A DNA stretch of 64,000 nt from Candidatus Oxydemutatoraceae bacterium (GTDB taxonomy: Bacteria; Pseudomonadota; Gammaproteobacteria; Poriferisulfidales; Oxydemutatoraceae): positions 1,409,928-1,473,927 of the forward strand of contig OZ244779.1 in NCBI GenBank assembly GCA_965219575.1. The letters are read 5' to 3'. A model generated the notes under the pieces. That model did no database searches and was not told where the DNA came from. It saw only the letters and a program-made list of their open reading frames with translations. Positions 23,094 to 24,880 of this stretch are shown here, in pieces (position 1 is the stretch's first letter; each line of letters starts with the position of its first letter). Position numbers and translations under genes: made by a program.

Positions 23094-23849
23094 TTAATTG
23101 CGCTCCAGTATTATAGGTATCTCGTCCCAGATGTTTCCGCTAAGGGTTCTGCCATTAACCTTTTTGTTACGGCTCTGCCCATCTTCACCCCAACGTCCCC
23201 ACTGTTTGAAGAAAAATGGAACCTTGCGTTTTTTGCATTGCTTTTGGATTGAGGTCACCCAAGCCTTGTTCATCAATCTAGCCTTATGCCCGGACTCACC
23301 ACCGACAATGACCCAGTGAATACCATCTAAATCTAATACGCCTAAATCTTCTAATAAAGGTTCTATAGACAAAAATCTTATTTTTGCTGCAATCTCTCGC
23401 AGTATGGGTATTCTTGGAAGACCATGTTTCCTGTTTTCTACTGAAACGCCAAGCCATATATTGTCGGGAATGACACGCCGAGAAAAGTATTTTGCCATAA
23501 TCTTAGGTCGTTTGGTTAGAACCTGATAGGTGTGTTGCGGTGTGTTGTGTATTGTCTCCATAACACGGTCGATAAAATCAAACGGAACATGAGGATGGAA
23601 TAAATCGCTCATTGAGTTCATAAAATATATCGTGGGTATTTTACGCAGTATCGGTTGCCTTAAGCGTTCCGCATGGCATGACACATCAAAGCCGTTTTTA
23701 TAACCGGCAACCCCCATTGCTCGCAACCGTCTCGCCATCACTTCGGCATAGCAGTACTTGCATCCTGCCGATATTTTCGTGCAACCGGTAACAGGGTTCC
23801 AAGTGCGCTCCGTCCATTCAATCTTTGAGTTTTTCATGGATTTAGGCAT
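23094..23849 (-). CDS. DUF5131 / phage Gp37-Gp68 family protein (three-Cys motif)
   Basis: N-terminal signature [27 protein letters not shown], characteristic of PF07505. An ATGA overlap with the upstream TcmP-like gene is possible, giving an alternative start at 23837. Confidence 0.75.
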   Translation of the reverse strand: [251 protein letters not shown]

Positions 23850-24880
23850 ATTTCAATTTTATTAAAATTCTCTTTTTTATCATTTAAGTAGAATGAGCCT
23901 TTTCTTCTTTTCGGATGAGGAGGGATAAGAGAAATATGTAATCTTTCATCTTTTTCCATTTGGTTTAGCAGAGGATTAACCTCTGTCGGCAAGTGTCCTT
24001 TCCTAAGCATTTCATCCAACAATTTTGTATTGCTTATGGGTTCTTGAAGCAGGTCAAGAAGATCTCTTTTAATTTCATCCTTGCTGAAATCGAAAAAAGT
24101 TAGTTGTTTTAGCAGTTTAGCTTTTAACGTATTTTTTGCTTCCAAAAACTTCTTTGCACCAAGCTGATTTTTGGTAATAAAAAACAAATGGTGCGTGCTT
24201 GATCCATTTTTATTTTCTAGTTTATAGCCGTATCCATAGTCGGATTGTGCCTTTTGTTTCAGTCCTGCTAACAATTCAGCAGAAAAGATGTCATAGTCGG
24301 GTTTGCTTAATGTGCTTGGGTTAACGTCTAAGTCTAAAGCAAACCGGTGAGCAGGATTATCTTCCTTACCATGAAATCTATAGATATGACTGGTTGGCAT
24401 AAAGATTAAATAATCAATACGGCTTAAGTCTAGTAAACGAGCTAAGTTTTCTCTTGTATATTGGGTATAGCCGTATGGGTCTATAAAAATCAGGCTATGT
24501 ATCTCTCCATGCTTTGGTAAAAACTTGATTATTTCATCTAGAAAATTGTTAGCATCCATATTAAAAATTTTCACAAAATCCGAGTAGAGCTCCATTGACT
24601 TTTTGAGTCTCTGATATTTTTCAGGTTTTATTTCGTTAAGAAATAAAGAAATGTCTTTTTCTAATCTATTTTTTTTTATTGTCTCTGCCTCTCTAAATTT
24701 CTTTATGATCTCTGCTGCCACTATTGCACTTCCTTTTTCTCCGCCAGAGTATATTCCTTCGCCTGCGAACGGTTCCCACACAGCAATGTCCCAATGTGAT
24801 ACATTACACATAACCGAGAGATAATTAGTTAGGTATTCTTTATATACAGATAGCTTTTCTTTTGTGTGTTCTGGTTGCAT
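23834..24880 (-). CDS. Three-Cys-motif partner protein (TcmP-like), putative methyltransferase-fold
   Basis: ~350-aa protein encoded immediately upstream of, and overlapping, a Gp37/Gp68-family gene, which is the defining context of TcmP. Its coding sequence is very AT-rich relative to the flanks. The family assignment is by context and architecture, not a verified HMM hit. Confidence 0.45.
   Translation of the reverse strand: MQPEHTKEKLSVYKEYLTNYLSVMCNVSHWDIAVWEPFAGEGIYSGGEKGSAIVAAEIIKKFREAETIKKNRLEKDISLFLNEIKPEKYQRLKKSMELYSDFVKIFNMDANNFLDEIIKFLPKHGEIHSLIFIDPYGYTQYTRENLARLLDLSRIDYLIFMPTSHIYRFHGKEDNPAHRFALDLDVNPSTLSKPDYDIFSAELLAGLKQKAQSDYGYGYKLENKNGSSTHHLFFITKNQLGAKKFLEAKNTLKAKLLKQLTFFDFSKDEIKRDLLDLLQEPISNTKLLDEMLRKGHLPTEVNPLLNQMEKDERLHISLIPPHPKRRKGSFYLNDKKENFNKIEICLNP

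Follow-up and report, generated by a model that had tools for sequence, protein, structure and literature searches.

A cassette of two adjacent genes, encoding TcmP, the three-Cys-motif partner protein, and a DUF5131 protein of the phage Gp37-Gp68 family, is listed in PADLOC as the defence candidate PDC-M30. It originates from a 'guilt-by-embedding' study of cassettes nested in BREX, DISARM and restriction-modification (R-M) loci (Payne et al. 2024 preprint, 10.1101/2024.01.29.577857). There it appears as cassette CAS_00125 (FAM_02577>>FAM_00989), which was entered in the supplement as 'assign as candidate' and lay outside the seven systems tested (10.1101/2024.01.29.577857). In a survey of Pseudomonas aeruginosa, PDC-M30 was found in 32 of 100 strains and 68.8% of these 32 belonged to the phage-resistant group, which is a correlation only. 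The other mentions found in the literature are annotations in gene lists and the listing of DUF5131 within the radical-SAM superfamily (see below). Here we describe such a pair in a stretch of 64,000 nucleotides (nt) from Candidatus Oxydemutatoraceae bacterium (contig OZ244779.1, assembly GCA_965219575.1), hereafter the window, where it lies beside a Type I R-M operon.

Both proteins were identified by profile searches. TcmP, of 348 amino acids (aa), scored 126.1 bits against TIGR04474 (cut-off 53; residues 4-250) and 180 bits against PDC-M30A. DUF5131 scored 353 bits against PF07505 (E=1e-105, cut-off 28.9, profile positions 1-243 of 243) and 374 bits against PDC-M30B. The original prediction, made from the DNA letters without database searches, had named the two open reading frames (ORFs) as a TcmP/Gp37-Gp68 pair, with a three-cysteine motif at the N-terminus of the downstream one, an ATGA overlap between them and a divergent hsdM some 250 bp away. 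All of this holds, including positions and strand; the gap to hsdM is 257 bp, and hsdM, hsdS and hsdR were confirmed by Pfam.

The locus is a further copy of a catalogued, uncharacterised two-gene module and is not unusual in itself. What is new here are the fold models of TcmP and DUF5131, the conservation of their motifs, the presence of a radical S-adenosylmethionine (SAM) partner beside TcmP in every one of 80 loci, the lack of any third gene that is conserved and the embedding of the pair between hsdR and hsdS. We propose, with confidence that is about evenly balanced, that the pair is a self-contained two-enzyme SAM-dependent module for the modification or processing of nucleic acid, probably DNA, which is used in conflict between phage and host.

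Folds and motifs of the two proteins

An AlphaFold2 model of TcmP was built from a 42-sequence alignment and reached a predicted local distance difference score (pLDDT) of 88 and a predicted template modelling score (pTM) of 0.85. In a Foldseek search with this model, ranks 1-11 were taken by 10 RlmJ chains and the RlmJ homologue 2oo3 (E=1e-8 to 7e-7, template modelling score (TM) on the target ~0.5-0.57). Below these follow many class I SAM methyltransferases, and KsgA, MnmM and TYW2 are among the best fold matches. The viral fold library BFVD returned generic methyltransferases only. The model of TcmP has two parts, an RlmJ-like class I SAM-methyltransferase fold (residues ~1-260) and, at the C-terminus, a winged helix-turn-helix (wHTH; ~265-348) made by the last 80 residues. 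The Pfam domain GMT-like wHTH (PF22560) was detected in 30 of the 42 TcmP relatives and in a homologue from a Gordonia phage; a literature search found no explanation of the name 'GMT-like wHTH'. Neither the two protein sequences nor the two family profiles gave a significant match in the PDB, and a PHROGs search found no family for TcmP.

The hhalign register of TcmP on RlmJ places G50-S51 on P-G-S-P, L-N82-E83 on L-T-E and F-I-D134-P135 on the L-I-D-P of the DPPY motif. A global hhalign comparison of the two gave nothing, and a permissive local alignment reached the N-terminus unconvincingly. The conservation of the motifs was counted over 185 representatives of the TcmP family. In this alignment, positions 36-42 are the classical motif I of amino-methyltransferases, with [D/E]36 in 181, F38 in 163, G40 in 175 and G42 in 183 of the representatives. 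G50-S51 is kept in 183 of the 185, N82 in 182 and [D/E]83 in 184. Within motif IV both D134 and P135 are found in all 185, followed by an aromatic residue at 136 (182), G137 (182) and Y138 (183). A pocket that still binds SAM and a base would be expected to show such conservation, and a decayed one would not. Between close orthologues TcmP varies most at residues 31-90 and in the wHTH (263-320) and least at residues 131-170, around motif IV.

The best fold matches of TcmP, RlmJ, KsgA, MnmM and TYW2, are rRNA and tRNA methyltransferases, and this would fit a module for rRNA or tRNA modification, in which TcmP and an RlmN/Cfr-like DUF5131 would act on a conserved nucleotide of the RNA to tune translation or give resistance to antibiotics or toxins, and would spread with mobile elements like Cfr and Erm. 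The radical-SAM methylation of adenine in rRNA by RlmN and Cfr is a precedent for such a role, and one phage DUF5131 is annotated as 'RNA methyltransferase', although this is an annotation only. We nevertheless consider an RNA module very unlikely. TcmP is highly diverse, forming 5778 clusters at 50% identity with a median identity of 28% (54% for DUF5131) and a ratio of nonsynonymous to synonymous divergence (dN/dS) of ~0.29, which is unlike enzymes that serve an invariant RNA site. Furthermore, the wHTH of TcmP is typical of DNA binders, DUF5131 groups with DNA-acting enzymes of the spore photoproduct lyase (SPL) type and not with RlmN/Cfr, and the genes found next to the pair are R-M and defence genes instead of ribosomal or resistance genes.

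In DUF5131 the cluster motif reads Cx6Cx2C, then Y-A, and its cysteines C19, C26 and C29 (numbered on the 247-aa protein) are invariant in 46 sequences, as are ~60 further columns. The family is large, with >8000 close relatives, and in the PHROGs search it matched only a family of unknown function. The AlphaFold2 model (pLDDT 84) consists of alternating beta and alpha elements with the cysteine loop placed after the first strand. Its top match among solved structures is SPL (E=1.8e-3, probability 1.0, TM 0.45), and the next matches are the lipoyl synthase LipA, viperin and SuiB; the matches to these four lie at E=2e-3 to 6e-2 and are mixed with generic TIM barrels. The canonical radical-SAM profile PF04055 did not match the DUF5131 protein of the window, where the cysteine spacing differs from the canonical Cx3Cx2C. 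From its model DUF5131 may be a radical-SAM protein with a partial (beta/alpha)6 barrel. It is a listed subgroup of the radical-SAM superfamily and belongs to the same RadicalSAM.org megacluster as SPL (PMC9477430).

Pairing and genomic neighbourhood

The pairing was surveyed in one genome per species, which gave 80 TcmP loci from at least 10 phyla. DUF5131 lies directly downstream of TcmP on the same strand in 70 of the 80 loci, with a median gap of 48 nt between the high-scoring segment pairs, and is adjacent but divergent in one. The other nine loci (L008, L012, L013, L015-L020), which carry a subfamily of TcmP, are without DUF5131, and the ORF immediately downstream of TcmP there encodes a canonical Radical_SAM protein (PF04055). 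A radical-SAM neighbour is found beside TcmP in all 80 loci. The PF04055 partners bear a faint N-terminal resemblance to DUF5131, with the common context GC...C..CYA..MA.RF, and read GCSNDCKYCYS or GCSHGCLYPCYA; their cysteine spacing is Cx3Cx3C or Cx3Cx2C. Set against them, DUF5131 appears to be a derived radical-SAM enzyme whose cluster loop has gained an insertion. These canonical replacements and the RadicalSAM.org grouping both agree with the fold match of DUF5131, which is weak by itself. Among NCBIfam families, those nearest to the PF04055 partners are Rv2578c, PA0069 and 'radical SAM mobile pair protein B', although none of the matches reaches its threshold; the first two belong to the SplB-like 'DNA repair photolyase' group. 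In two of the nine loci (L012 and L015) a gene for an S24/LexA-like repressor is located upstream of TcmP.

A role in DNA repair is suggested by some of these resemblances. DUF5131 could, like SPL, reverse a lesion that is open to radical repair, and TcmP would be the subunit that recognises the lesion or flips the base. The nearest solved fold of DUF5131 is SPL, the canonical partners of TcmP are nearest to Rv2578c and PA0069, and the S24/LexA-like repressor gene preceding TcmP in two loci would suit a repair function. Repair genes are, however, atypical in a patchy, mobile distribution, in R-M loci as embedded genes and in phage lysogeny modules, and the rapid divergence of TcmP is equally atypical of them. 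Moreover, an intact SAM-binding methyltransferase site would not be needed for recognising a lesion, and we regard a repair module as highly improbable.

In phages the picture differs from that in cellular genomes. DUF5131 is mostly solo in isolate phages (L084, L086-L091) and in viral contigs (L092-L171). DUF5131 occurs in 180 isolate-phage records, but in seven of the eight isolate-phage loci sampled it is present without TcmP. These solo proteins are longer (307-398 aa) and are encoded in early or replication blocks near RecT, RusA, MazG and DNA methylases. Of 80 viral contigs, 28 have TcmP next to DUF5131, the two genes being arranged in one of three orientations, whereas TcmP is lacking in the other 52. 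Pairing is obligate on the TcmP side and not on the DUF5131 side, and the expectation that the cassette is widespread in phages stands for DUF5131, which there mostly occurs alone. A temperate Gordonia phage carries the pair with the integrase on one side and the immunity repressor on the other. A gene annotated with an 'ACSH domain' lies close to DUF5131 in two unrelated phages, Bipper and phi3LM21.

No third gene recurs on either side of the pair across the surveyed loci, and the module is therefore self-contained. The commonest upstream neighbours among 121 proteins are N6_Mtase (6), Eco57I-type (5) and EcoEI-type HsdR proteins (4), and Fic proteins, S24 peptidases, HerA and integrases are also found. 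One locus from Ignavibacteriota (L074) has the order hsdR > TcmP > DUF5131 > hsdS > GmrSD, with hsdM further on, and in a Balneolaceae (L037) and a Bacteroidia (L054) genome the pair likewise lies between hsdR and hsdS; in all three loci it shares the strand of the hsd genes. Embedding of this kind occurs in no fewer than three unrelated phyla. Other loci have a prokaryotic Argonaute (pAgo) upstream and hsdS downstream (L067), hsdM upstream (L038) or a Type IIG-like enzyme as neighbour (L077). Type I genes are found within 10 kb of the pair in ~8% of the 80 loci. The association with restriction and defence is real and recurrent, but it is confined to a minority of loci and is optional. The link to R-M that had been predicted is thus borne out at the level of the family, both by the definition of PDC-M30 and by the embedding between hsdR and hsdS, and fails as an obligatory one. 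An obligate dependence of the pair on Type I R-M was considered and rejected, most of the 80 loci having no R-M neighbour.

The embedded position is also that of PrrC, an anticodon nuclease that is hardly ever found outside Type I R-M operons. By analogy, the pair could be a guard that is silenced by, or co-regulated with, Type I R-M and is triggered by phage anti-restriction, whereupon radical damage to host or phage RNA or DNA would lead to abortive infection. Such a role would agree with the RNA adenine bound by the closest fold relative of TcmP, with the co-divergence of pair and R-M in the lineage of the window across a constrained intergenic region (see below), and with the correlation between PDC-M30 and phage resistance in the 32 P. 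aeruginosa strains (68.8% resistant). We think it unlikely all the same. A module that has no Type I gene within 10 kb in roughly 85-90% of the 80 loci cannot depend on R-M, and solo DUF5131 genes, common in the early-gene blocks of phages, are hard to square with a suicide effector. In the window, furthermore, the pair lies outside the hsd operon and divergent from it, and not embedded on the same strand in the manner of PrrC; the gene that is embedded in this operon is another one, orf198.

Base composition, history and layout of the locus

The 348-aa gene had been described as AT-rich and the pair as distinct in base composition from the core genome, and this, with its place next to a Type I R-M, was taken to suggest horizontal acquisition. 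The 348-aa TcmP gene is indeed AT-rich (GC content 0.343), but DUF5131 (0.437) is near the value of the window (0.461). Both genes were compared with their flanks in all loci that had enough flanking sequence (69 for TcmP and 60 for DUF5131; L003-L082). TcmP has a lower GC content than its flanks in 69 of 69 loci, by 9.2 points on average and by up to 28 points in L007 (0.37 vs 0.65), and the deficit is found at all three codon positions, the third (GC3) included. DUF5131, in contrast, is below its flanks in only 33 of 60 loci, by a mean of 2.2 points, and tracks the GC content of the host. Because low GC is a property of the TcmP gene everywhere, it says nothing about when the present cassette arrived. 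It is possible that the AT-richness of TcmP results from weaker constraint, exposing the universal mutation bias towards AT, or from alleles of TcmP being replaced often.

Two metagenome-assembled genomes of 'Candidatus Porisulfidus' are nearest to the window. Both carry the same arrangement of a TPR gene, DUF5131<TcmP, hsdM>hsdS>hsdR and a pentapeptide gene, without orf198. Synonymous divergence (dS) between the window and these loci is 0.45-0.50 for TcmP, 0.48-0.53 for DUF5131, 0.56-0.60 for hsdM and 0.49-0.56 for hsdR. As it is the same for all four genes, the pair and the R-M operon have been inherited together since the lineages split. We reject low GC as a mark of recent acquisition in view of this equal dS and of the AT-richness of TcmP across the family.

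These results bear directly on the original prediction, which read the pair as a horizontally acquired accessory module that may cooperate with restriction or substitute for it; we take this here as a recent gain with a function tied to this Type I R-M system. The pair is adjacent to hsdM and divergent from it, the arrangement is kept in the two related genomes and an association with R-M exists in the family. The low GC is nevertheless confined to TcmP, where it is intrinsic to the family, and the GC content of DUF5131 is close to that of the genome. The equal dS of the pair and of hsdM and hsdR points to long co-residence instead of a recent gain, and most members of the family are found without R-M. 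We find this reading decidedly unlikely.

Compared with the orthologues, dN/dS is 0.27-0.31 for TcmP, 0.054-0.062 for DUF5131 and 0.10-0.13 for hsdM and hsdR. Neither TcmP nor DUF5131 is a chance ORF, since both are under purifying selection. By this measure both genes of the pair are functional, with TcmP ~5-fold less constrained than DUF5131. The intergenic region between TcmP and hsdM is ~87% identical to the 'Ca. Porisulfidus' loci, compared with ~62% at the synonymous sites of the flanking genes, and an identity so far in excess of that at synonymous sites shows that the region is under constraint. It is presumably a control region shared by the pair and hsdM. It contains a promoter-like TTGACA-17-TACGAT on the + strand (25006-25034), the number of such sites being not above chance, and a motif ATRCGATAA that is repeated 91 bp apart (24937 and 25028). 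No terminator was found in a scan around the pair, and the counts of the promoter and terminator scans were not above shuffled expectation. An Rfam search of positions 22800-25400 gave no match, and the small ORFs seen between TcmP and hsdM appear to be noise.

The starts of both genes were examined (Table 1). The longest ORF of DUF5131 extends over 23094-23849(-) and encodes 251 aa. The orthologues, however, are 247 aa long and begin with MKNSKIEW, and the true start is for this reason probably 23837 and not 23849, which gives 247 aa. The stop codon TGA of TcmP (23834-23836) overlaps this ATG, the junction being CCATGAAAAAC, and the ATGA overlap indicates translational coupling of the two genes. 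For TcmP, two points support the longer start, which gives 348 aa: residue 4 is where the match to the family profile begins, and H5, K9, Y13 and Y16 are near-invariant; a database copy annotated at 325 aa is probably truncated.

Table 1. Features of the TcmP/DUF5131 locus in the window
Feature	Position	Strand	Basis or remark
DUF5131 / phage Gp37-Gp68 family protein	23094..23837	(-)	247 aa; PF07505 and PDC-M30B matches
TcmP (three-Cys-motif partner protein)	23834..24880	(-)	348 aa; TIGR04474 and PDC-M30A matches
ATGA stop/start overlap of TcmP and DUF5131	23834..23837	(-)	Direct sequence reading
Divergent intergenic region TcmP/hsdM	24881..25137	.	257 bp; conserved above neutral expectation
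Type I R-M operon	25138..32287	(+)	Context; no role in the mechanism of the pair is claimed
hsdM	25138-27318	(+)	Pfam N6_Mtase/HsdM_N
hsdS	27315-28628	(+)	Pfam Methylase_S
orf198, embedded	28625-29221	(+)	198 aa
hsdR	29225-32287	(+)	Pfam HSDR_N/ResIII/SWI2_SNF2

The embedded orf198 has stop and start codons that overlap or abut those of hsdS and hsdR. It matched PADLOC PD-T4-4_B (E=1e-7) and PDC-M47B weakly and had no match in Pfam, NCBIfam, PHROG or PDB. This gene is itself a candidate for an 'embedded' defence gene. In the 'Ca. Porisulfidus' loci L001 and L002 a KilA-N/BstA_C protein is encoded (15101-15958) ~3-4 kb from the pair. BstA is an abortive-infection family, and the gene suggests a broader defence island in the 'Ca. 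Porisulfidus' lineage.

Several other features of the window were recorded. A cluster of mobile elements adjoins the locus at 18153-21631. It comprises a gene of a PD-(D/E)XK transposase family (18153-19076), an IS110-family transposase (19277-20278, -) and a repeat-rich gene (20753-21631), the C-terminal sequence of which is shared with the PD-(D/E)XK transposase-family gene. A second stretch of low GC (0.37-0.41) is found downstream of hsdR at 32001-35000, with one gene for a pentapeptide-repeat protein and another for a DUF488 protein; the matching region in the 'Ca. Porisulfidus' loci has an extra AAA_15/AAA_21 ATPase gene and a gene of ~190 aa (189-194 aa), both absent from the window. 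A very long ORF of 3299 aa occupies 38645-48544 (+).

Proposed mechanism and comparison with known systems

The two proteins, translationally coupled and both predicted to use SAM, would act together as a complex. TcmP combines a predicted RlmJ-like amino-methyltransferase fold with an intact SAM-binding motif I, an acidic residue for ribose binding, a variant base-binding motif IV and a winged helix, and would select the nucleic-acid target and present a flipped-out base in the motif IV pocket. This target is most likely DNA, since TcmP carries a wHTH, its partner is SPL-like and the context is one of R-M. DUF5131, a predicted radical-SAM enzyme of the SPL clade with one [4Fe-4S] site (Cx6Cx2C), would make a 5'-deoxyadenosyl radical for nucleotide chemistry beyond that of a plain methyltransferase. 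We assign target recognition to TcmP because it evolves ~5-fold faster and is far more diverse than DUF5131. The outcome would be either a base modified in an unusual way or a lesion, and the sequence does not decide between a protective or epigenetic mark and damage to foreign nucleic acid. The module is mobile and associated with conflict, and in the present genome its link to the Type I R-M operon, across the conserved and presumed control region, has been stable.

A number of observations weigh against this proposal. The sequence-profile support for the likeness of TcmP to RlmJ is marginal (hhalign P=6e-4 to 1.3e-3, probability 18-28%), and the Pfam RlmJ model PF04378 had no match in TcmP at E<=1. 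Its motif IV is D-P-[YFHW]-G-Y (D-P-Y-G-Y in the window), which departs from the canonical (D/N/S)-P-P-(Y/F/W). Because of this different motif IV and the missing Pfam match, we call TcmP RlmJ-like in fold and not a member of the RlmJ family. The nearest structural relative of TcmP acts on rRNA, not DNA. The fold match between DUF5131 and SPL is weak, with generic TIM barrels at similar scores. In most phages DUF5131 does its work in the absence of TcmP, and TcmP is therefore not universally required. The link to defence is one of guilt by association, and a literature search found no functional study of any member of the TcmP or DUF5131 families.

Beyond the proposal of a SAM-dependent module, it is tempting to speculate, although we hold this to be rather doubtful, that the pair is a new kind of radical-SAM nucleic-acid enzyme employed in conflict between phage and host. 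TcmP would flip and hold the base, the SPL-like DUF5131 would carry out the radical chemistry and the outcome would be an undescribed DNA modification or a PrrC-like targeted damage that backs up restriction, with the fast-evolving and universally AT-rich TcmP as the specificity subunit. Should the chemistry turn out to be a DNA modification of a new type, or an effector that acts through radicals, this would be a new enzymatic principle in bacterial immunity. The pair is common and is flagged by a widely used defence-annotation tool, and the biochemistry of the family is now a well-framed question. The hypothesis has been narrowed to two predicted SAM-using proteins, one with a base-binding pocket and a winged helix and the other resembling a radical-SAM enzyme of DNA repair. 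To this, the present locus adds only a clean natural example of long-term linkage to Type I R-M.

Several known systems share features with the pair. The PrrC anticodon nuclease is a functional analogy only: it is an accessory gene that recurs inside Type I R-M operons, as the pair does in some loci, but there is no relation in sequence or fold and most copies of the pair are not close to R-M genes. The 'radical SAM mobile pair' A/B (TIGR04471, TIGR04470) is likewise a mobile module of two genes. DUF5131 reaches 109 bits against its protein A, below the cut-off of 355, and the canonical partners of TcmP give sub-threshold matches to protein B. Both partners in that system are radical-SAM proteins, however, TcmP is absent from it and the proteins of the window reach neither cut-off.

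The SPL and SplB-like proteins, among them Rv2578c and PA0069, provide the nearest solved fold for DUF5131, weak as it is (TM 0.45), and share its megacluster. DUF5131 differs from SPL in the cysteine spacing (Cx6Cx2C vs Cx3Cx2C) and in length (247 aa vs 340 aa), and SPL works alone. Rv2578c and PA0069 are most like the canonical radical-SAM partners of TcmP, with NCBIfam scores far below the cut-off. For TcmP, the best structural match is RlmJ (PF04378; PDB 6qe0, 4blv), the methyltransferase of m6A2030 in 23S rRNA. TcmP has counterparts to its N-terminal helix, to motif I and the G-S, to the acidic residue that follows strand 2 and to the I-D-P in motif IV. RlmJ carries an inserted helical subdomain after motif I, whereas the model of TcmP shows no more than a short hairpin there. 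TcmP differs further in having D-P-[YFHW]-G-Y instead of D-P-P-Y, in the wHTH added at its C-terminus and in its obligate pairing with a radical-SAM protein.

At the level of the family definitions, the pair lies above both curated cut-offs, TIGR04474 for TcmP and PF07505 for DUF5131, and shows the adjacency that defines them; these definitions carry no function. PDC-M41 shares the DUF5131 component with PDC-M30 and is matched less well by the window. PDC-M30 is itself a prediction from embedding, and the pair described here stands beside an R-M operon, not inside it. In structure, however, the two do not differ: the genes of the window match the A and B models of PDC-M30, are adjacent and follow the same A>>B order.

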